A DNA stretch of 64,000 bases. It comes from a virus. Lineage: Duplodnaviria; Caudoviricetes. Numbering within the stretch: the stretch's first letter is position 1; each line of letters begins with the position of its first letter. Of the stretch, positions 11,870 through 62,619 are shown in pieces. The notes beneath the pieces are model-generated. The model had not been told where the DNA came from. It did no database searches and saw only the letters and a program-made list of their open reading frames with translations. The position numbers and the translations under genes were made by a program. The stretch is taken from IMG/VR virus record IMGVR_UViG_3300032116_000009. One strand, 5' to 3'.

Positions 11870-12691
11870 TTAAGATGCTTCATCCAATTCAATTCCATAA
11901 GACTCTAGAATTGAGTTTTTCCACTCTTCACTCATGTTGACCATAATAACCATTGCACCCTCTTCTGAGTCCGCATAACCTTCATCTAGAAGGTGTCCTT
12001 TGACTAGATCGAAGATATCTACTCCCGCAGAGATATTCTTTAATGAGGCCATTTGAGCCATTTTTTTAATATTACCTTTAACCTGATCTGGTGCATATCC
12101 GGTTTGATATCCAAAAGTTTTTTGCATCAGTGGATTAAAAGTTTTCTTTGGAGCTTCTGCGGGTTTTGGTGCAGGAGCCGCAGCGGGTTTTGGTGCAGCG
12201 GGTTTTGGTGCAGCGGGTTTTGGTGCGGGAGCGGCAGCAGGTTTTGTTGCAGCGGGTTTTGGTGCGGGAGCGGCAGCAGGTTTTGGTGCAGGAGCCGCAG
12301 CAGGTTTTGCAGACGGTGTGGGAGTTTCTTGTCCAGGTCTTTTAAAAATAGGAGACATTCCAGGATTAACTGGTTTATTATTGACTCTAAACCCACCTTG
12401 ACCAATTGAAAGACCTTTCATCTGTGGTTGTGGTTTTGCGGTAGAAGATGTAGTGGGTTTTGAAGCACTAGGAGATCCACCACTTCCAAACCTCTGTTGT
12501 CTTAGAGCATCAATTCTAGCAGCAGATTTTCTTTCTTGAGCAGCCTGTGCTCTGACCCTGTTTACTGCGGCTTGTCCACCAAAATTTACACCAATCTCGT
12601 GCAAATCTTCTGTTTGTTCATTGAGAACTTCGGGAGTCTCATGAATTTTTGAATAGGCCTCCATGAGACCCCTGATTTCTTCTGCTCTCAT
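11870..12691 (-). CDS. Putative internal virion protein with KPAAAPAP repeats
   Basis: Acidic N-terminus (LMEAY...LHE), Pro/Ala/Lys repeat core, C-terminal HLLDEGYA...NMSEEW domain shared with 57280..58566. Confidence 0.7.
   Translation of the reverse strand: MRAEEIRGLMEAYSKIHETPEVLNEQTEDLHEIGVNFGGQAAVNRVRAQAAQERKSAARIDALRQQRFGSGGSPSASKPTTSSTAKPQPQMKGLSIGQGGFRVNNKPVNPGMSPIFKRPGQETPTPSAKPAAAPAPKPAAAPAPKPAATKPAAAPAPKPAAPKPAAPKPAAAPAPKPAEAPKKTFNPLMQKTFGYQTGYAPDQVKGNIKKMAQMASLKNISAGVDIFDLVKGHLLDEGYADSEEGAMVIMVNMSEEWKNSILESYGIELDEAS
12145..12310 (-). repeat. Tandem repeats encoding KPAAAPAP/KPAAP
   Basis: Recurring gggttttggtgc(a/g)g units on the + strand. Confidence 0.85.
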
Positions 12692-33828: not shown

Positions 33829-35103
33829 TCATCTCTGTTCCAACCAGTTCATAATTGCAAGTGCTGCTTTGTTAGCGTTAGGTGAGGCACATACGAGAGT
33901 GTAAATATCACTAATTGTTCCAATACCACTTCTACCAACTTGTAGTTGTGCTTTGTCATCAATGACTATCTGACTTCCACCACCACCAACAACAAATCCA
34001 CTTAAAAGAACTCTTCCACCAGTGAAAGAAGTTGCAGTTGTATCATATTGAGTAATTGCATCTGGGTTTGCGTGATCAGTAAATGCTGCACCGACTAGAG
34101 TTGGGTTCTCAACTAGTCTCCAGAAGATGTTAGTATTATCATTAGTAGATACTTGAAGTGACCTTGGAATTACAACACCACTCAACATATTTGATTTAAG
34201 ACGAATACTAAGAACTGGATAATAAGTATTCGCAACAGACATCGTAGTTCCAGTAAGAGCATTGCCCTGACTGACAAGAGTTCCAAGTTTTTCTGGTTCT
34301 CCTTCCTGAATAAGAGAATTAGAACCCTGATAAAGGTAATGAGTTCCTGCAACACCAGTTACATTTTCAATTTCACAACGAATTGGTAGGAATGGAGTAG
34401 AACACCAAACATATGGATTGGTATTTGAGTTATCAAATGTATGACTATGAATTGTTTCATTCTTCATTAACCAATTAAACTGAACAATTCCTGCACCATA
34501 CCATTCATAGTTAATTGAAATCATTTGTTGTTTTGTTGGATCTGCAACAACACCTGTATATCCATCACCACCAAACTTTTCACCATTCCAATTATCTCTG
34601 GTTACTCTAGTTTCTGTAGTAATTCCAGATGTACTACTGCGAATTACATATGAATATGTTCCACCATCGTCCTCAAAGTATGCACCGTTATAGTCATCAA
34701 ACAGTCCAAATCTTCTGCGAATTCCTACCTTTGGTTCTTCAAGACGAATAGCAAATGCAAGAGTTGCACCCCTACCAGGAATGTATCTCATTACAGTCCT
34801 AGTTTGACGAATGACTTTACTCCCTGCAGTAGATCCAACTTGCATCACTACATTACTGGATGATGCGTTGTGATATGCAGTTCCAACTCCAACTATTCTT
34901 TCATCCCATACATCACTCTCTTTTCCGTACTGGAAAGTATTAAAGAAGACTGTTTGGTACGGAGCAACTTTAAGTCTGTTGTTATTAGAAAACTGAGGTC
35001 TCCAGTCTGTCTGGTTTCCCCAGTGATCTGCAATATTAAAAACTTCAAAGAGACTTCTCTCTTGATTTAGATAGTCCTGTTCATTCTTATTCCACTGAGC
35101 CAT
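33829..35103 (-). CDS. Putative virion structural protein
   Basis: 424-aa beta-rich ORF (YIPGR, YEWYGAG) in a late operon. Confidence 0.65.
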   Translation of the reverse strand: MAQWNKNEQDYLNQERSLFEVFNIADHWGNQTDWRPQFSNNNRLKVAPYQTVFFNTFQYGKESDVWDERIVGVGTAYHNASSSNVVMQVGSTAGSKVIRQTRTVMRYIPGRGATLAFAIRLEEPKVGIRRRFGLFDDYNGAYFEDDGGTYSYVIRSSTSGITTETRVTRDNWNGEKFGGDGYTGVVADPTKQQMISINYEWYGAGIVQFNWLMKNETIHSHTFDNSNTNPYVWCSTPFLPIRCEIENVTGVAGTHYLYQGSNSLIQEGEPEKLGTLVSQGNALTGTTMSVANTYYPVLSIRLKSNMLSGVVIPRSLQVSTNDNTNIFWRLVENPTLVGAAFTDHANPDAITQYDTTATSFTGGRVLLSGFVVGGGGSQIVIDDKAQLQVGRSGIGTISDIYTLVCASPNANKAALAIMNWLEQR

Positions 35104-35420
35104 TATTCACTCCAAGATAGTCTTTCTGGTTGATACCTCTGAGTATTCTTAATTTTTAAAGAACTTTGAGATTGTGATGGATAAATGTTATGAACGATTG
35201 CTCCAGGATACTCACTCTGAAGTTGTTCAGCGAGAGCGTTCTTATCCATCATAGAACCCTCTACTTCCAAACGATACATCTTTCCTTCCCAAACTACATC
35301 AGCAAAGAAAGACTCTCCTACTGGTTCTGATTGTGGTTCGGAACCATTGATATAAAGGTTTCCGTTGAAGTCACCAGCAATGTTAATTGCTTCCGATAAA
35401 AATTGATTGAATGATTTCAT
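35103..35420 (-). CDS. Putative internal head protein with CTS-like N-terminus
   Basis: MKSFNQFLSE resembles the T4 capsid-targeting sequence MKTYQEFIAE. Confidence 0.6.
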   Translation of the reverse strand: MKSFNQFLSEAINIAGDFNGNLYINGSEPQSEPVGESFFADVVWEGKMYRLEVEGSMMDKNALAEQLQSEYPGAIVHNIYPSQSQSSLKIKNTQRYQPERLSWSE

Positions 35421-37756
35421 TAGTTACAGTTCCAACGACGAAGGGCTTTGTTGATTCTTGAATCTGGATCTCGTGCAGTTTCTGCACTAGTTAGTCTCTT
35501 TTTCATACCTTCCATTCTGCGGCAAAAGGACTTACGGCGTTCAGCCCTTTTGCCCGCAGGCTTTTTTTCAGTTACTGCAGTCTGAAGTTTTGAACCTGGA
35601 TTTTCACGACGATAAGCATCTACAGCTTTCTGACTGAGACCATCGGTTTTATCTTTACGATTAACTGACTGCCAATCTTCCTTAACTCCAATCATCACAA
35701 TCGGATTTCTAACTCCAGCGGATCTCATCTTAGTTTTTGTTAGATTTACTTTAGTTGGTAAATCTCTCATATCCTTTTTTGGAGTTTCATTCTCTTTTTC
35801 GTCACATCCACAACCTTCACTCATGTTTGGATTGATTTGAATTTTATTTTTCTTTTTAGAAACATCAATTACTTTTTTTTTATCCGTTGCAGAGGAAAAA
35901 TCTTCTACTTCAAATAAAAAATCTTTTCTCCAATCATGGAGTTCTTCTTTTGTGACTTCTTTTTTATTTTGTTTGTTTAGTTCTCTTTTTGTCTTTGCAA
36001 TTTTAAATGCAGCTGCGCCCAATTGAACTCCACCTTTAACCATCTTACCAATATTACTTGCAACTTTAGTTGCAGCTGCACCTTCGGTATCTTTAGTAGA
36101 TATTTTTTGATATTCTGGTCTATCTACAGATTTTTTGGATGATTCAATTTTTTGTTCTAGTTCTCTTTTTCTATTTTTTTCTGCTTCCTTTTTCTTTTTT
36201 TCTAGAGCCTCAGCTTTTTTCTGAGCTCTCATTTTATCTTCCCTTTTAGTTCTTTCTTTTCTAGCTTCAGCTTTAGAAGCGGCCTTTTCTCTTTCAGTTT
36301 GTTGAAGAATTTTTGCAGCTTTTACTCTCGTGGCACCCCTAACTCTCTCAGCTCTTTCTACCCCAGTAACTTTTCGTTTACCTTTTTCTGGTTCTTCCTC
36401 AGTTTCTTTAGGCTTTTTTGATTTTTTATTGTCATCGTCTCCACGAATATCCGCAAGAAGATCGTCAAGTTTACCTTCACTTAATGGAGAAAATTCTAGG
36501 ATCATTCTATCAACTAAAGATAACTCTTCTTTAGTCTCCTCCTTTTTTTCAGGGAGTCCTGCATGTTTTGTCTTTGCAAAATCTCTTGCAGATTTCTTAG
36601 TCATTCCCTCTGCAGCCTTTGCAACCTCTGGAGAAGCAGGAGTTTCACCTTTCTTAGCAGCATAAACCATACCCATGAATCTCTGTTGAGCTCTACTTAG
36701 AGACTTCTCTGTAAGATATCCCTCACCCATTGCCTTCTGTTTACGAAGTTTCTTAGGATTCTTTGTCTTGTCTGCAGAGTAGTTATTATCATCCTCATTA
36801 TCAGGATCTACAGCACTACGATGTCTTGTGCGTCTTTCCTCATCATCCATGTTTGCACGACTTCTCTTTGCTTCATCTGGAGAATACTTTCTACCACTGT
36901 TGTACCATTCCTTACCTACATGACCTCTCTTCTCAGCATCAGCAGAAGCTTCTCTACGCTTATTCTTCTGACGATTTGCTTTGAAATCTTTCATGGTCAT
37001 ACCTTCTTCGATTTCAGTCTCTTCTTTTTTCACTCCTCTTCTCTCTTCATGTTCAGCTCTACGAGCCCTTTGTTGACCTCCACCTAATGCAAGGGCACCA
37101 CTTGGATTGTCATATCTTGCAAGTCTTGCTGCAGATCTCTTATGTTCTGGAAGTTTCTTATCTGCCTTACCTTCATCAACAAGGTCGCCTTCGGGTTCAT
37201 AAGATTGACGAAGTTGTTTCATTGCATCGTTAAGTGCATTGTTACGTTTTTGCATTCCATATGCAGCACCAGCAATACCTGTTCCAGGATTTTTAATCTG
37301 TTTTCCTTTATTTGCAGCATCTACTCCAGATTTCGCAGCATCTTTAGCTCTCTTAATTGCAGCACCAGCAGCAAGAGCTCCACCAAGAGCAAGTCCGCCA
37401 GCAATTAGTGGTGCAATCTCATCAATCTGTTCTACTTCTTCTTTCGCTTGAATAATCTTACTTCTTACCTTTCTGCGATTTAAAAGATATTTGTCAGTCT
37501 TATCATGATCTCCATCATTATCAATATCCTTATCTTCTTGACCAACAGCATCCAGTTGTTTCGCTTCTTCTACTTTCTTCTTCTTGTCTGCAGCAATGGC
37601 AGCTCCAACAGTAGCTCTCCTCTTCTTAAGATAACTATCAGAACTATCGGAATCACCATCATTATCCACATCGTCATCTTCATGACCAACTGGATCCAGT
37701 TTTTTAGCTGTTTTAGCTTCTGCAACAATACGTGAAAATTTTTCCCAACTAGACAT
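35420..37756 (-). CDS. Modular low-complexity protein, putative protease-processed internal head polyprotein; C-terminal RRKSFC..M domain (DUF6321-like)
   Basis: Successive basic modules separated by [ILV]xE junctions; two DxDNDGD motifs. Confidence 0.75.
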   Translation of the reverse strand: MSSWEKFSRIVAEAKTAKKLDPVGHEDDDVDNDGDSDSSDSYLKKRRATVGAAIAADKKKKVEEAKQLDAVGQEDKDIDNDGDHDKTDKYLLNRRKVRSKIIQAKEEVEQIDEIAPLIAGGLALGGALAAGAAIKRAKDAAKSGVDAANKGKQIKNPGTGIAGAAYGMQKRNNALNDAMKQLRQSYEPEGDLVDEGKADKKLPEHKRSAARLARYDNPSGALALGGGQQRARRAEHEERRGVKKEETEIEEGMTMKDFKANRQKNKRREASADAEKRGHVGKEWYNSGRKYSPDEAKRSRANMDDEERRTRHRSAVDPDNEDDNNYSADKTKNPKKLRKQKAMGEGYLTEKSLSRAQQRFMGMVYAAKKGETPASPEVAKAAEGMTKKSARDFAKTKHAGLPEKKEETKEELSLVDRMILEFSPLSEGKLDDLLADIRGDDDNKKSKKPKETEEEPEKGKRKVTGVERAERVRGATRVKAAKILQQTEREKAASKAEARKERTKREDKMRAQKKAEALEKKKKEAEKNRKRELEQKIESSKKSVDRPEYQKISTKDTEGAAATKVASNIGKMVKGGVQLGAAAFKIAKTKRELNKQNKKEVTKEELHDWRKDFLFEVEDFSSATDKKKVIDVSKKKNKIQINPNMSEGCGCDEKENETPKKDMRDLPTKVNLTKTKMRSAGVRNPIVMIGVKEDWQSVNRKDKTDGLSQKAVDAYRRENPGSKLQTAVTEKKPAGKRAERRKSFCRRMEGMKKRLTSAETARDPDSRINKALRRWNCN

Positions 37757-37781: not shown

Positions 37782-39044
37782 TTATTTATTCTTTTTGCCT
37801 CTACGAAACTTATCGTAAATAGATGCAATCTTAACACCGGTATAACTTTTAACTTCTTGTCCTGGAGTTAATGATTGGAGATACTCCCTATATTCATCTG
37901 TACCGATTTCATGGGGGTGTTCAGTGAGATCTTTTAACCAAGACTTGAACATAACTCCGTCTTCAGTTACACAAATGACATAGTTAGTTCCTCTACGAAT
38001 TACTTCACCTCTAAGGCCTGTATTCATATTTTCAACGATAGATCCAACTTCATAGATGTGATCAACTAGGTATGCATCTCTAAGACCCTCTTCATCAAAT
38101 TTAGGTGCAACTTCCCAAATTTCCGTCTGTTCATTAATTCCCATAGATCTACGAAGAACATTAAAAAGTTCCATCTTTTCAGTGTTACCCAGAGTATCAG
38201 GAACACCTTTCGCAAACTTTTTAAAGTCACCTTCTGCTGCAGCAAGACGAAGTTTTGAAGCAGACATTCCTGTTACATCATCAGAGTCTGGATCTCTTTC
38301 TCCTGCAGAAACTACTTCAAGTTGATCATAATTATAAAGTTCCCCATTATACTTATGACTCAAACCTTGAAACTCTCCGAGTCGGTCTTGGCCCACCATG
38401 ATGATCATATTATTATGACCTTCTTGATTTGCACCCGTCAATACATTAAAGATTGTTTTTGCTCCCTTGTCGTCAATAATACTATCTGCATAATCTGGGA
38501 ACATCTGACGCATATATGAAATCTTCATTTGTGGAGTCAAAGGATTTTTCTTAGCATCATGAGAACGAGAAGGATAAACTCTCAATTCATATCCTCTCTT
38601 ATCAGCTTCCTTTGCAGCACGATCTAAAAGTTTTTGATGACCAATTGTTGGTGGATTAAATCTACCAAACACCACAACAACTCCTGGAGTTTCTGGAACT
38701 GGTACTTCTGCAGGTTGTTCTTCTGTCGCTGGTGCAGATTGTTGTTCTGGTGAAACTTGTTGAGAATTTTGTGTCTGTTGTGGGGAGGGTTCTTGAACAA
38801 CAGACTGAGTTGCAGTCTGTTTAGATGAGATTGATTTAGTACTTGGTTGAGATGGGGAATCTTTTTGTCCTGGAATATTATCACTACCAAAGAACTTTAA
38901 TTTACCAGCCACAGTTTTTGCAACAAACTCACCATTTTTGTCATACCATCCGCCATGACCATCTCCGGTCAAACCAAGTCTCTTGGCTTCTGTAGATGCA
39001 GAAGTTTCTCTAGCTTCAGTGAGGAACTGCGTGAAATTCTTCAT
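37782..39044 (-). CDS. Cytidylyltransferase-like (HxGH nucleotidyltransferase) protein
   Basis: FGRFNPPTIGH...VGQDR...MSASKLR; N-terminus MKNFTQFLTE. Confidence 0.88.
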   Translation of the reverse strand: MKNFTQFLTEARETSASTEAKRLGLTGDGHGGWYDKNGEFVAKTVAGKLKFFGSDNIPGQKDSPSQPSTKSISSKQTATQSVVQEPSPQQTQNSQQVSPEQQSAPATEEQPAEVPVPETPGVVVVFGRFNPPTIGHQKLLDRAAKEADKRGYELRVYPSRSHDAKKNPLTPQMKISYMRQMFPDYADSIIDDKGAKTIFNVLTGANQEGHNNMIIMVGQDRLGEFQGLSHKYNGELYNYDQLEVVSAGERDPDSDDVTGMSASKLRLAAAEGDFKKFAKGVPDTLGNTEKMELFNVLRRSMGINEQTEIWEVAPKFDEEGLRDAYLVDHIYEVGSIVENMNTGLRGEVIRRGTNYVICVTEDGVMFKSWLKDLTEHPHEIGTDEYREYLQSLTPGQEVKSYTGVKIASIYDKFRRGKKNK

Positions 39045-57279: not shown

Positions 57280-58566
57280 TCAATCTCTAGATGAATCATA
57301 TTTTTCTCTCGCTTTTGATTCTTTCTTTTCCTTTTCGGTAAATCCATGTTTCATAACTCTTTCGTTATGACGAGTAGCCTTTCTTCTCTGTTCTTCCTCT
57401 GGGGATTCTTTTTCACCCTTTACTTTTGGTTCTTGTCTTGAACCAGGAAAGTTCTTAGAGTGTTCTTTCTCAGCCTTATGTTGAAGGTTAGTAATACCTG
57501 CTTTTAGTCTGGTCTCTTTACCTTTTTTCGCAGCCATAAAGGAAGATTTTGCTTTTTCTGCACGTTCCGCACGAGCCGAATCTCCACGATCAGAACCTTC
57601 TGTATCCATCCTACGTGCTTCAATAATTTCTGCAAACCAAGATTCACTCATATTAAGAATGATTTTATCTGCAGACTCTTCATTTGAAGCATATCCTTCC
57701 TCAAGTAAATGCGAAAGAACTACTTGATAAGTGTTGTAACTTTCATCAATTTCACCCATTGCTTTTTGCTTACGGAGTTTCTTAGGATTCTTGGTTACTG
57801 TACCAGGACCTGGCTTGTGTCCACCAGCAGTGTACTCAACAGCACTATCTCTCGCATAATCTCTGCTATCTTGGTCAAGTTTACCCCTACCAGATTTACC
57901 CAACATACCAGACCATCTTGGTTTAGTAGATTTCTTACCACGATTTCCTGCATCAGGACCATTATCAATTCTCTGAGTATGCTTCTCAATTGCCTTTACT
58001 TTCTTAGTCTTCTCACCTTTCTGAGAATACTCACTTGCGGGTTTCTCACGTCTTGCGATAGCAAGTTTACCCATTGCTTGTCTTGCTTTAGGTGTCTTAC
58101 CGTAAGAACCTTCTGCTTCATAGATATCAAGCATGTCATCCCAAGTGTACTCGGATAGATCATAACCTTCTTCTACAAGAGACTCCACCCAAAGTTCAAA
58201 ATCTTCTTTAGCAAACTCACCCATTGCTTTTTGCTTACGGAGTTTCTTAGGATTCTTAGTAATTCCACCAGGACCCTCTGAAGGATAATCATGACCGCGA
58301 GGAGAACCATGTGCTGCACCTGCTCTTGCTTCCTCTCTATCAGAAGCAGTCATTCCTTTTCTTGGAGAAGTCTCAGGCCTTCTTTCTGCAGGATTAGTTC
58401 TTCTGAGCATTTTCTTGAGGAAAGGCTTTCTCTTTGCAGTCATCTTGGTTTTTGATGCTGCAGCATATGCCTTTGGAGTTTCACCATAAGAACCTTCTGC
58501 TTCATCAAGTTGTTGATTAACTTGGTTATAAGCTTCTGTCAGATTTTGCAGGTCGTTAAAGTCCAT
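57280..58566 (-). CDS. Putative internal head polyprotein with duplicated AEGSYG...KNPKKLRKQKAMGE modules
   Basis: Translation; CTAAATA late promoter at 58589..58595. Confidence 0.75.
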   Translation of the reverse strand: MDFNDLQNLTEAYNQVNQQLDEAEGSYGETPKAYAAASKTKMTAKRKPFLKKMLRRTNPAERRPETSPRKGMTASDREEARAGAAHGSPRGHDYPSEGPGGITKNPKKLRKQKAMGEFAKEDFELWVESLVEEGYDLSEYTWDDMLDIYEAEGSYGKTPKARQAMGKLAIARREKPASEYSQKGEKTKKVKAIEKHTQRIDNGPDAGNRGKKSTKPRWSGMLGKSGRGKLDQDSRDYARDSAVEYTAGGHKPGPGTVTKNPKKLRKQKAMGEIDESYNTYQVVLSHLLEEGYASNEESADKIILNMSESWFAEIIEARRMDTEGSDRGDSARAERAEKAKSSFMAAKKGKETRLKAGITNLQHKAEKEHSKNFPGSRQEPKVKGEKESPEEEQRRKATRHNERVMKHGFTEKEKKESKAREKYDSSRD

Positions 58567-58596
58567 TTTTTTACAAATACTTTGTAAGTATTTAGT

Positions 58597-58618
58597 AAAA
58601 AAGAGGGGTTTCCCCCTC
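58597..58618 (-). terminator. Rho-independent terminator
   Basis: GAGGGG-GAAA-CCCCTC followed by a T-run. Confidence 0.85.
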
Positions 58619-60827
58619 AAGCAACAAGATCAATAAACTCACCAAGAATTTTTTTATTCATCTTCTTACTCTTTAGAGACTTTGCGAATGCAGATTTAAT
58701 TTGGGATTTTGTTGCACATTCATGAACATCAAACTCAGAATCTTGAGAAAGTGCCGAACCAGAAAGGCCAAAGTAAGAATGATAACCAGAATTTTTAATT
58801 GAAAAAGATTTATTCTTTTTCCAATCATTCATGATTTTTACATATTCTTTATTGTCTTGAGCATAACCAGAACTATATTCATAATTATCGTAATACTTAC
58901 GAATGAAAGAATTAGCTTCACGATTTTCAAGAACCCGCATACCAATAAAATTCACAGAAGGAAAACGATCACGAAGGTTCTGAAGAAGAGTGTCCGTAAA
59001 TTGATGAAATTCAAATGGTACTTTATAAGTACAGCCAGTTTTACGATCACGAATGAAAGTAGGGTGACTATTAAGAGAGTTCAATCCAATATAAGGTTCT
59101 CCACCATCAACAGAACGATTTTTAAACTCTTTGTGAAACTTCATATAACAAGCTTCACCATCGGTTAAAACTACACATTGAACTTTCTGGAGTTTATTTT
59201 CCTTTTGAAACTTAGGCAAAATTTGATGCATTGCAATCAAAGCTTCATTCAAAGGAGTTCCAGAAAGAAGTAGTCTAGTCGGAGTATTATACATTGGAGC
59301 ATCATTATAAGAATACTTAAATTCTTTAGCAATGCGATAAATGTTAATCATTTGTTCTTCCAGAACACGATTATTTACTTTACTAGTAAAAAGATTCATC
59401 ATGGAAAATGTTTCATCTACACAGATGAGTCCAGATTTCTTTTGATAGTGTGGTTCCATCCTCATAAAGTTTCCCTTTTCGTCATATGTACTACGACGCC
59501 ACTCATTAGTAAATGCATAAACTTCGAAGGGAATAGAAACCTTCTTACAGAACCAAATCAAATTATAAAGTTGTTTGATTGTATCCTGCATCACATTTGA
59601 CATTGAGCCAGACCAGTCCAGGACAAACACTAGGCCATGATTTTTTCCGTTTGCAAGAGTGGTTACCTTACGGAACAAATCTTCATTATACTTATAAGTA
59701 TGAAGTTTAGAACAATCTAGAACACCAGTACGAGCAGTAGTGGAACGAGCGTATGAATCTGCAGCTTTCCGACATTCAAACTCTTTCACCAAGTAGTTAA
59801 CTTCTTTCTGAGCAGAACGTTTGAACTCTCGAAAATCTTTATCAATTTTTCCAAACAAAAATTCCTTAGCATTAGATTGACTCTTACTAAGAGATTCTAC
59901 TGATTTGTTCCACCAATCATTAATTTCATCATGAACTTCAGAATTAGATGCAATGACAGTTTCTAGATTAAGTTTGGGAAGTTCCACATAAACATTTTCA
60001 TACGAAGAGCTGTTGACAAGATCTCGAATAGATTCTTCCAAATTATCTGCAGTATGGACTTTAGGATCAGAAGTCTCTCCACCCTGATTTGAAGTTCCCT
60101 TAGAAGGTTGATCAATATCATCCCCCGATTCACCATCAGAAGGAGTCTGGCCACCTTCACCAGAGGTTTCAAGTGTATTCTGATCCGAATATTCTTCTTG
60201 GGGTTCTGAGGAAGGTTCTGAACTGTTTCCAGAATTTTGTTCCACTGTATCAATAGAATCAATCTTCATTTGTTGATCCTGTTCTTTCTTGCAGTACTCA
60301 TAAAGTTTTACCGCAGCTTGAATCGCTTCATCAAAAGTTTCTGCATCACCAATCATAGTGATGATTTCTTGTTCTTCCTGATTAAACTGTATATCAATGT
60401 AGTTACCAATCTTAAAGTAAAGATTGGCACGATCTGCAAGATTAAACTTAGAAATATCTTCTTCCTTTACTTGGAAAAAATCATCCTCGTGAAGTTCACG
60501 ATAACCCGCATAAAAACACTTATTGAGACCCGCATACCTACGTTTCATCAACTTTTCAATACGAGCATCTTCCGTAACATTCACAAATTGTTGTGGGATG
60601 GAAAACTTTTCACTCCAGTCCTCGTTAGGAGTATAAAGTGCATGACCCACTTCATGACCAACAAGCATATCGTAGACAACGTTAGAAGCCTTCTCCCACA
60701 TCGGGAGAATCAGGACACGAGTATCCACATTGAAAGACGCAGTGGGAACGTGTTTGTGTTCCACCACCAGATCTTCAGTAGCGAGGAGACGGGCAAGATG
60801 ACCTTTGACTTCGTGATTAACAGACAT
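58617..60827 (-). CDS. Metallopeptidase-like domain plus vWA (CobT-like) protein
   Basis: HEVGH (HExxH), EDARIE, VLDWSGSM MIDAS motif, SGTPL, VLTDGE. Confidence 0.88.
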   Translation of the reverse strand: MSVNHEVKGHLARLLATEDLVVEHKHVPTASFNVDTRVLILPMWEKASNVVYDMLVGHEVGHALYTPNEDWSEKFSIPQQFVNVTEDARIEKLMKRRYAGLNKCFYAGYRELHEDDFFQVKEEDISKFNLADRANLYFKIGNYIDIQFNQEEQEIITMIGDAETFDEAIQAAVKLYEYCKKEQDQQMKIDSIDTVEQNSGNSSEPSSEPQEEYSDQNTLETSGEGGQTPSDGESGDDIDQPSKGTSNQGGETSDPKVHTADNLEESIRDLVNSSSYENVYVELPKLNLETVIASNSEVHDEINDWWNKSVESLSKSQSNAKEFLFGKIDKDFREFKRSAQKEVNYLVKEFECRKAADSYARSTTARTGVLDCSKLHTYKYNEDLFRKVTTLANGKNHGLVFVLDWSGSMSNVMQDTIKQLYNLIWFCKKVSIPFEVYAFTNEWRRSTYDEKGNFMRMEPHYQKKSGLICVDETFSMMNLFTSKVNNRVLEEQMINIYRIAKEFKYSYNDAPMYNTPTRLLLSGTPLNEALIAMHQILPKFQKENKLQKVQCVVLTDGEACYMKFHKEFKNRSVDGGEPYIGLNSLNSHPTFIRDRKTGCTYKVPFEFHQFTDTLLQNLRDRFPSVNFIGMRVLENREANSFIRKYYDNYEYSSGYAQDNKEYVKIMNDWKKNKSFSIKNSGYHSYFGLSGSALSQDSEFDVHECATKSQIKSAFAKSLKSKKMNKKILGEFIDLVA

Positions 60828-60849
60828 GAACTTTGTTTCGTATGTGGCT

Positions 60850-60908
60850 ATATTACATGAAAAAAGGGGTCTGATTAGACCCCTTGTGACACTTTTTAAA
60901 CTGTCACA
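60850..60908 (-). promoter_or_regulatory. Palindrome-associated promoter of the peptidase-vWA gene (its spacer also forms the gp46 terminator)
   Basis: TGTGACAGTTTAAAAAGTGTCACA, then 29 nt, then TAATAT. Confidence 0.6.
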
Positions 60909-62619
60909 CCATTTTACTAAATCCTTTAATTTTATCAAATTTTATCACTTTTTCAAACTTATCCATAAGATCATCCGTCTTATGTGAAATCACAAATACA
61001 TGAGCATCCTGAATGACATAACGAATAATATTTGTGAAGAAATCTGTTCCTGCTCCGTCTAAAGAACTATCAAAAATTTCATCTAGGATGAGAAGATTTG
61101 TACTGGCCGAATTTCTAAGTTTGGCAATGTCTCTCCAAGTAAATAAGAGAGAAAGGTCAATACGCATCTTCTCACCTTCACTAAATGACTCATAACTAAA
61201 ATCTTCATGAACTGGTGACTTAATAACCTCCTTAAACTCTTCATCCAGTGTAAAGTTGATGTAGAAGTCCATCATCTGTAGATACTTGTTTATCTGCTGA
61301 TTCATAAGAGGCAGATACTTTTTGATGATTTTAGACTTCACTCCACCATCTTTCATCAATGAATGAGCAAAATCGTAGTAACTAATCTGTTCCTTTTCGT
61401 TAGATCTATCTTTTTCTATTTTGTCTAGATCTTTTATTAAGTTTTCAAGGGTTTTACGCTCAGTATTTCTGTTTTGAATTTGTTCGGTAATTTCTTGAAT
61501 TTCATGTCCAAGATTTCTGATCTGTTTGTTAAGCCCAGTAATCTTAACATTGTTTGTGGTAATGTCATTGTTGAGTTTACTAATCTCCGTAGAATAAGAT
61601 AAAAATTGTTGGTCTTTCTCTTGTTCTACATTGATGGCATCCTCCAACTCTCGGTATCCATCATTGAGTTCTTTGGATTTCTCCTCGATATCGACAATCT
61701 TATTTAAGCGAAATTCATTCTCTATACTTTGGGTACAAGTAGGACAAACCGTATTTTCCTGAAAAAACTTATGTTCAGAGACAAGAGTTTGAATCTTTTG
61801 TTCTAGTTTTGCCTTGATAGAATTAAGTTTCTTTAGAGTTGAATTTGTACTAGTAAGTTCTTCCAACTTTGGTTGAAGTTCTTTTTCAATCATCATTGAA
61901 ATTCCTTCATTATCAGTATTCAATTCATCAATTTCATTCTCAATAAATTTAATACTATCTTTTTTCTTTTGGATTCTTTCTTTACCACTTTCATCAAGAT
62001 TCTTAATAAAGTTCTCTTGCATTTCAATCTTATCTTCAATCATGTCTTTCTTGATTGAATATTCACGAATGAGTTCATTTGTTTTACGCATTCGTTCTTT
62101 TAAGATATTGTTCATTGTAGAAAAAATCTTAATGTCTAAAAGATCTTCTACAATTTCCCTACGATGGGAAGAAGTTAATTGCATAAAAGGGACGAATGTA
62201 GCCGAACCTAAGATGACTGTTTGGGTGAAAGATTTATAATTAAGTTTTAAAATATTTTCTTCTAACTTTTTCTGCTGATCTTGAGCTGCAGAGTCTTGAT
62301 TTTGTATTGTCCCGTCAATCCAAATTTCAAAAATATTTGGTTTGATACCTCTCACAACTTTATAATTTTTATTACCAATATCAAATTCAATTTCTACAAG
62401 ACAGTCCTTCTCATTCACAGAATTAATAAGTTGTGGTTTATTAATTTTTCTGAATGGTTTATTATACAAAACAAAAGTAAGAGCATCAAGAATTGTACTC
62501 TTACCGGAACCATTAGTTCCTACAATTAAGTTTGTCTTAGCGTCTTGAAAATTTACTTCGGTAAATTGATTTCCAGTAGAAAGAAAGTTACGCCAACGAA
62601 TCGTTTTGAAAAGTATCAT
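60904..62619 (-). CDS. Recombination endonuclease ATPase subunit (gp46, SbcC/Rad50-like)
   Basis: GTNGSGKS, CPTC zinc hook, FSEGEK, LILDE, VISH. Confidence 0.96.
   Translation of the reverse strand: MILFKTIRWRNFLSTGNQFTEVNFQDAKTNLIVGTNGSGKSTILDALTFVLYNKPFRKINKPQLINSVNEKDCLVEIEFDIGNKNYKVVRGIKPNIFEIWIDGTIQNQDSAAQDQQKKLEENILKLNYKSFTQTVILGSATFVPFMQLTSSHRREIVEDLLDIKIFSTMNNILKERMRKTNELIREYSIKKDMIEDKIEMQENFIKNLDESGKERIQKKKDSIKFIENEIDELNTDNEGISMMIEKELQPKLEELTSTNSTLKKLNSIKAKLEQKIQTLVSEHKFFQENTVCPTCTQSIENEFRLNKIVDIEEKSKELNDGYRELEDAINVEQEKDQQFLSYSTEISKLNNDITTNNVKITGLNKQIRNLGHEIQEITEQIQNRNTERKTLENLIKDLDKIEKDRSNEKEQISYYDFAHSLMKDGGVKSKIIKKYLPLMNQQINKYLQMMDFYINFTLDEEFKEVIKSPVHEDFSYESFSEGEKMRIDLSLLFTWRDIAKLRNSASTNLLILDEIFDSSLDGAGTDFFTNIIRYVIQDAHVFVISHKTDDLMDKFEKVIKFDKIKGFSKMV

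Follow-up and report, generated by a model that had tools for sequence, protein, structure and literature searches.

What does a late gene encode whose product alternates acidic and basic segments and carries the same short peptide at the end of two otherwise dissimilar modules? The question is raised by gene A (428 aa), located at 57280–58566 on the minus strand (stop codon 57280–57282) of a 64,000-nucleotide stretch of viral DNA, IMG/VR record IMGVR_UViG_3300032116_000009, which was analysed as a whole and is referred to as the window. It stems from a T4-like cyanomyovirus (Kyanoviridae): its replication genes share ~78% nucleotide identity with those of S-SCSM2R, S-SRM01 and S-SSM7, and a 424-aa cyanophage virion structural protein encoded at 33829–35103 is up to 80% identical to its counterparts in isolates. 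On balance we lean, by somewhat more than an even chance, towards the view that the gene A product is a head-targeted polyprotein of internal-protein-like peptides, which would be packaged and processed. Gene A matched no family in Pfam, only families of unknown function in PHROGs and only unnamed viral clusters with scores <0.9 in the ESM Atlas, and the 646 homologues retrieved in a word-based search (E ≤ 0.001) are all without a name.

Modular anatomy of gene A

Residues of gene A are counted from the ATG, net charge was computed per segment, and all segments lie on the minus strand in the order leader, K1, ac1, K2, EGY spacer and basic C-terminal module. The leader (residues 1–22; 58501–58566; net charge -5) is of the MD..(D/E)L..L.EAY type found throughout the family and contains LTE↓A at residues 9–11 and LDE↓A at residues 20–22. 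It is followed by basic module K1 (residues 23–117; 58216–58500; +13; 10.4 kDa, isoelectric point (pI) 10.4), which starts with AEGSYGETPKA, ends with TKNPKKLRKQKAMGE and is devoid of internal hydrophobic-x-Glu triplets. The acidic helical spacer ac1 (residues 118–150; 58117–58215; -11) ends in IYE and leads to basic module K2 (residues 151–272; 57751–58116; +18; 13.3 kDa, pI 10.3), which is framed at both ends like K1, by the same N-frame and the same C-frame, and has an interior that is conserved among relatives. Next comes the acidic helical ‘EGY’ spacer (residues 273–316; 57619–57750; about -7), which ends in IIE; modules of this type sit ahead of basic modules in most relatives. The basic C-terminal module (residues 317–428; 57283–57618; +8; 12.9 kDa, pI 9.9) starts with ARRMD, belongs to phrog_1784 and has relatives in S-RIM8, S-RIM2 and S-CREM1 (S-CREM1_220). 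Charge alternates along the whole protein, and the predicted basic products resemble the internal proteins of T4 in their small size and basic pI (9.9–10.4).

The initial annotation had described the spacers as acidic and helical, and both their charge and structure prediction bear this out. AlphaFold2 modelling of ac1 plus K2 with 29 relatives yielded a low-confidence model without globular fold (mean predicted local distance difference test (pLDDT) 58.5, predicted template modelling score (pTM) 0.26), in which only the acidic helices (pLDDT 73–80, with ac1 forming two helices) and a helix in the tail (~75) reached some confidence. Judged from this model, isolated basic modules would probably be disordered. 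The idea that gene A encodes a polyvalent (multi-effector) phage protein was rejected on account of the same model and the lack of any Pfam domain.

Conserved frames and reshuffled modules

Both K modules are bounded by recurring frames. The N-terminal frame AEGSYG(E/K)TPKA is present at 58468–58500, after QLDE, and at 58084–58116, after DIYE, and extends beyond these 11 residues (TPKA..A..K.....R.KP). At the other end, the 14-mer KNPKKLRKQKAMGE occurs at 58216–58257 and 57751–57792 and once more at 36722–36763, each time on the minus strand and exactly as first annotated. The distant copy closes a K3-type module (residues 252–345 of the product of a 778-aa gene; 36722–37003, minus strand). 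Three identical 14-mers cannot be due to chance. Within gene A the two copies agree at 41/42 nt (87% identity over 69 nt), and 4 to 5 changes, every one of them synonymous, set the copy of the 778-aa gene apart from these two.

To what extent is this motif shared with other genomes? A back-translated pattern for NPKKLRKQKAMGE matched in at least 119 IMG/VR stretches, and 106 of the 119 motif loci among the matches listed also hold homologues of other window genes and are therefore from related phages. Confinement of the motif to a single genome, named at the outset as an outcome that would speak against it, is thus not what is observed: it is spread over contigs of related T4-like cyanophages. 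When 1.84 billion cluster representatives were searched with a profile built on the final ~50 residues, only 210 clusters were detected at E ≤ 0.001, and among 50,697 phage records K modules were present only in S-SZBM1 and S-CREM1, both of which infect Synechococcus CB0101. The tail forms the C-terminal end of a ~50-residue domain. Considering the 127 domain copies found by hidden Markov model (HMM), all from representatives that the word-based search did not find, the exact 15-mer TKNPKKLRKQKAMGE is present in 77. Conservation reaches at least 93% at 13 of its 15 positions and is lower at L7 (85%) and K11 (78%).

Selection on the tail acts on the protein rather than on the DNA, as had been suspected from the synonymous differences. 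Among the matches listed, 135 copies of the 15-mer come in 85 DNA spellings, in which each degenerate codon varies synonymously, and copies within one gene differ by 0–6 nt, as against a mean of 5.2 nt between loci. Homogenisation of copies within one gene was looked for and not found, and the near-identity of the two tail copies in gene A is a local event.

The interiors of the modules had been called unrelated, which holds only in part. BLAST searches with the interiors detected no similarity between the families of K1 (30 sequences), K2 (89) and K3 (50), but after removal of both frames a profile comparison aligned the last ~35 residues in register on a weakly conserved R-G-K-M-D-x-D-x-R core ahead of the tail (K1 vs K2, P=4e-4; K2 vs K3, P=4.5e-3; not significant for K1 vs K3). 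A mixed alignment of the families revealed two Arg residues outside the frame that are at least 90% conserved, and intermediate forms bridge the families, e.g. GRGEMT in a K1-type sequence. The notion of freely variable cargo is not supported: K2 exhibits a mean column identity of 70% over 29 relatives and many invariant interior residues. Since the core aligns without the frames, the Arg residues are shared, intermediates exist and each interior is conserved in itself, the modules represent, as far as sequence comparison tells, a single domain family that has diverged and varies in its N-proximal half, and they are not arbitrary cargo. A close relative, P0002, shares 91% identity with gene A; its K2 has lost the C-proximal interior, so that ..KPRW is joined straight to KNPKKLRKQKAMGE, the frame having survived.

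The proposal that the cassettes are swappable was corroborated, as their number and order vary among relatives. Besides the architecture in the window (Ld-K1-ac1-K2-EGY-R, Ld being the leader), we found Ld-K2-EGY-K2, Ld-K1-EGY-K1, Ld-ac1-K1-EGY-K2, K3-ac1-K2 (S-SZBM1_194) and K2-ac1-K1. Breakpoints of homology on gene A cluster at residues 18–22, 119–124, 146–150 and 272–277. The frames are kept in many genes and would therefore be the points at which recombination reshuffles cassettes. A K1-ac1-K2 block lies in S-CREM1 within the gene after the cytidylyltransferase gene, and the K3-ac1-K2 block of S-SZBM1 belongs to the cluster of structural genes that follows the small terminase gene (gp16). 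Modules of the K3, DUF3008 and DUF6321 types are also encoded in relatives by separate genes with leaders of their own. The window itself holds a third member of the family (273 aa; 11870–12691, minus strand), in which an MD/MR..L..L.EAY leader of the same type as in gene A, behind GATAAATA/AATAAATA, is followed by a Pro/Ala-rich stretch and an acidic EGY module, and no basic K module is present.

Proposed processing, targeting and location of the product

Hydrophobic-x-Glu precedes (A/G)EGS(Y/F)G in 111/111, GMTMKDF in 46/47 and ARRMD in 8/8 distinct contexts, i.e. it stands at 165/166 module starts in the family and at all five joints of gene A, at a background of 2.9% per residue. Positions P2 and P4 vary freely at these joints (DIYE, YLDE, EILE, QLDE, LVME and others), and ..AMGE is frequently followed by a second such triplet (IGE, LGE, FGE or FAKE). 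The prohead protease gp21 of T4 cuts after L/I-x-E, and its relatives in giant phages use redundant sites (PMC9026906). The window itself contains no gp21 gene; Peptidase_S77 (gp21) was detected at 117–119 bits in two motif-carrying viral contigs. One of these contigs has the order gp20-gp21-gp22-gp23 and encodes a gp23 with LAE↓A at residues 50–52. This is the expected maturation position of gp23; T4 gp23 is cut at LTE↓A after residue 65.

These data suggest the following scenario. In a T4-like cyanomyovirus, gene A would form a late transcription unit of its own, and in its product acidic helical segments would take turns with basic modules that are mostly disordered. The polyprotein would enter the prohead core via its N-terminal leader, perhaps also via its acidic segments, and a gp21-type prohead protease would then cut after hydrophobic-x-Glu at residues 11, 22, 117, 150, 272 and 316. 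Subsequently, the acidic pieces would be lost, while three basic products of ~10, 13 and 13 kDa would stay with the DNA in the manner of T4 internal proteins and may be ejected along with it. The conserved frames would accordingly represent cleavage-site contexts of a recurring domain. Of the packaging and processing handles that the initial annotation had seen in the frames, processing fits, with hydrophobic-x-Glu ahead of every module start, but the N-terminal leaders rather than the tail are the likelier handles for packaging.

Several leaders resemble the T4 capsid-targeting sequence (CTS), MKTYQEFIAE (PMC8442874). Stand-alone K3 modules (~107 aa) begin with M(K/R)TFQEFM.IAE↓G. The CTS comprises ~10 N-terminal residues with an aromatic residue at positions 4 and 7, I/L at 8 and Glu at 10, followed by Ala; CTS-like N-termini were found in 50/3347 open reading frames (ORFs) versus 1/10468 internal Met positions, which corresponds to ~150-fold enrichment. 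Two further window genes match the pattern exactly: a cytidylyltransferase gene (NadR/NMNAT-like; 37782–39044, minus strand), whose product starts with MKNFTQFLTE↓A, and the gene of a 105-aa protein (35103–35420, minus strand) starting with MKSFNQFLSE↓A.

Upstream of gene A, a late-promoter-like octamer, ACTAAATA, is located at 58589–58596 (minus strand), at a distance of 22 nt from the ATG, and represents a variant form of NATAAATA, the late-promoter consensus of cyanomyoviruses (PMC2984593). When 34 distinct upstream regions of the family were inspected, TATAAATA was present in 27 and NATAAATA in 5, at a distance of 19–23 nt from the ATG, so that 32/34 share (T/N)ATAAATA; the window has ACTAAATA instead, and TATAAATA occurs at this distance in 5% of control ORFs. 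The octamers of the family usually follow directly after a terminator. At the present locus this is an intrinsic terminator consisting of a GC hairpin and a T-run (58603–58618, minus strand), which ends the upstream HExxH/vWA ‘peptidase’ gene and separates it from gene A; a T-run ahead of the promoter motif is likewise seen in 25/34 relatives. The ATG at 58566, originally assumed as the start of gene A, is supported, as the terminator lies upstream of it. A TTG at 58620 was considered as an alternative start and rejected, because the hairpin with its T-run would fall inside the extension. The plus-strand ORF at 57709–58158 was treated as an antisense shadow of the conserved gene A.

The DNA between octamer and ATG (58567–58588, minus strand; ..AAAGTATTTGTAAAAAA before the ATG) is common to most family genes. 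These ~22 nt (..ACTAAAAAGTATTTGTAAAAA..) are nearly identical at about 30 loci despite diverged coding sequences, and they may represent a 5’ untranslated region or a translation-initiation element. The gene upstream of the terminator (773 aa; 58617–60938, minus strand) belongs to phrog_459 (‘peptidase’), is often annotated as CobT-like and combines a HEVGH zinc-protease motif with a vWA-like part. Genes of the gene A type are located directly 3’ of the phrog_459 peptidase gene in several relatives, and a homologue of this peptidase is present at 28/119 motif loci among the matches listed.

Modular relatives have been annotated as virion proteins or detected in virions. S-SCSM1_89, in which the MD-type leader is joined by one EGY and one ARR.DKEG module, is annotated as ‘virion protein’, as are S-SCSM1_92 (a modular gene after the NMNAT gene) and S-SCSM1_93 (a lone DUF3008 module), both modular relatives of the 778-aa gene. 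The S-SCSM1 paper reports 45 virion proteins detected by mass spectrometry (MS), 13 of which have unknown function. In CsCl-purified virions, MS detected S-SZBM1_139 as well as gp155 and gp160 of S-CREM2, which are modular relatives, too. S-SZBM1_139 shares CW.GY, Ala-rich and YSWR modules with S-CREM1_219, a protein that also has K modules. The CTS-led cytidylyltransferase, a neighbour of such genes, was found in S-SZBM1, S-CREM2 and S-SCSM1 virions; for S-CBWM1, an NMNAT in the virion proteome is reported in the S-SCSM1 paper. Complex prediction for scaffold protein gp22 and a K3 module encoded on one and the same viral contig gave a score of 0.00 and a partner pLDDT of 36, and carries no weight either way.

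A number of observations weigh against a packaged and processed polyprotein. The leader of gene A, MDFNDLQNLTE↓A, has its LTE↓A at residues 9–11 but lies outside the MK.[FY]..[FY][LI].E pattern, and the promoter octamer of the window is ACTAAATA and not NATAAATA. Cleavage and packaging of the K modules are predictions. Internal cut motifs are rarer than expected in K1 (0.00 observed vs 0.31 expected) and K3 (0.02 vs 0.53), yet this depletion is small, the sequences are related and the test is weak. That the ‘virion protein’ labels of S-SCSM1 stem from the MS data is what we infer. Moreover, S-SZBM1_194, which carries K3 and K2 modules, is absent from the 30 MS-detected virion proteins of its phage, although its neighbours are present; this absence counts weakly, because Lys/Arg-rich sequences yield poor tryptic peptides. 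Finally, the domain ends the whole protein in 30/127 copies, followed only by HD, HG, H or LG, and a cut 1–4 residues from the protein end would do nothing useful. A P3–P1 protease motif cannot account for 15 nearly invariant residues. Just upstream of S-SZBM1_194, the 87-aa hypothetical protein S-SZBM1_195, which has no CTS-like leader, shows the third-highest exponentially modified protein abundance index (2.66) in the virion proteome.

The tail must be more than a cleavage site, since in those 30 copies cutting would remove only 1–2 residues. That it is invariant and frequently closes the protein points to a specific partner, and a further, specific binding partner is needed to explain 15 near-invariant residues. 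A bolder idea, which we put forward as a speculation with a minor chance of being correct, is that TKNPKKLRKQKAMGE could be a dedicated docking signal, a second address at the C-terminal end, fixing each of the released peptides to one conserved partner in the head or, after ejection, in the host; the acidic spacers would then be cis-neutralising propeptides, and a single late gene would deliver programmable ejected effectors, the set of which is changed by cassette shuffling.

Could the product reside in the virion or prohead without ever being cut? A long flexible protein of alternating charge, e.g. an accessory core or DNA-condensing component in which hydrophobic-x-Glu acts as a helix cap, would agree with the prediction of acidic helices with fair confidence and disorder in the remainder, and the tryptic MS that found relatives in virions is devoid of information on termini. 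However, the motif accompanies the module that follows it, irrespective of whether the leader, ac1, EGY or a further K module comes before, stand-alone modules possess a cleavable T4-like leader at the same position, and the tandem sites MGE-IGE and MGE-LGE resemble redundant cut sites. We regard an uncut component as unlikely. Even less credence is given to a late protein or peptide set that stays in the cytoplasm and never reaches the capsid, perhaps binding nucleic acid of host or phage or ribosomes late in infection, with the likeness of the leaders being coincidental. The failure to detect S-SZBM1_194 in virions and the deviating leader of gene A are in line with this possibility, and binding of the invariant basic tail to some target in the cell is conceivable. 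On the other hand, the family stands behind late promoters typical of structural genes, the leader type of gene A is also found on the annotated virion protein S-SCSM1_89, stand-alone K3 modules carry a near-T4 CTS, and MS found modular relatives in two other virion proteomes.

The frames might also matter mainly as DNA, serving as recombination or gene-conversion sites of a selfish cassette with no role in the protein. The near-identical tail copies of gene A and the clustering of homology breakpoints at the frames would be accounted for in this way, but the many DNA spellings of one peptide, the lack of homogenisation of copies within a gene, and the amino-acid conservation among the HMM-found copies largely refute it as the sole explanation, which makes it very improbable. 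The head-targeted, processed polyprotein remains the reading we favour.

Comparison with known systems

A literature search covering cyanophage polyproteins and the motif strings found no published account of the motif or the gene class. T4-like cyanophages have drawn study for their major part in killing picocyanobacteria, and the contents of their heads besides DNA are barely known. If gene A encodes a packaged and processed polyprotein, a late-gene family with 646 homologues would supply the head with sets of small basic proteins derived from exchangeable modules strung together, and the T4 logic of capsid targeting and gp21 cleavage would be extended from one protein per gene to polyproteins. 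This would also explain cytidylyltransferase-type enzymes in virion proteomes of cyanophages and would provide natural leaders and cut sites for cargo loading into cyanophage heads. The invariant tail offers a precise means of tracing the partner it binds.

A possible model for the tail is offered by the basic, helical C-terminal helix-turn-helix of the P22 scaffold and by the cargo-loading peptides of encapsulins, which dock cargo inside HK97-fold shells. The likeness in docking is by analogy: there is no sequence similarity, and the tail is often internal in the gene A family. Regarding the joints, T4 gp22, gp67 and gp68 as well as inner-body or ejection proteins of phiKZ and SPN3US are cut at several sites by gp21-like proteases (PMC9026906). 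Multiple cuts after Glu, redundant neighbouring sites, loss of propeptides and retention of DNA-associated fragments are features that gene A would share with them. In contrast, these are single functional proteins with propeptides and not strings of interchangeable modules that are also found as separate genes.

The closest system is the internal-protein/CTS/gp21 pathway of T4 combined with the swapping of genes for internal proteins between T-even phages. IPI, IPII and IPIII of T4, and Alt, are small, basic, non-essential head proteins that are loaded by a ~10-residue leader, released by gp21, kept with the DNA and ejected (PMC9026906, PMC8442874, PMC3012670). Common to both is diverse cargo behind a conserved leader, and the leader of the stand-alone K3 modules is close to MKTYQEFIAE. 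The two differ in that T4 internal proteins are encoded one per gene and are cut once, whereas gene A strings together several basic modules and acidic spacers with a candidate cut site at each joint. The leader of gene A is of a different type than the T4 CTS, its invariant C-terminal 15-mer is without T4 counterpart, there is no sequence homology, and its cleavage is predicted. According to the account of Repoila et al. (1994) given in PMC3012670, the hypervariable internal-protein locus of T-even phages exchanges cargo genes and keeps the targeting sequence. As far as that account goes, whole genes are swapped there at one locus, whereas the gene A family reshuffles sub-genic cassettes within and between several loci, namely behind the peptidase and cytidylyltransferase genes and, in S-SZBM1, in the structural cluster downstream of gp16.

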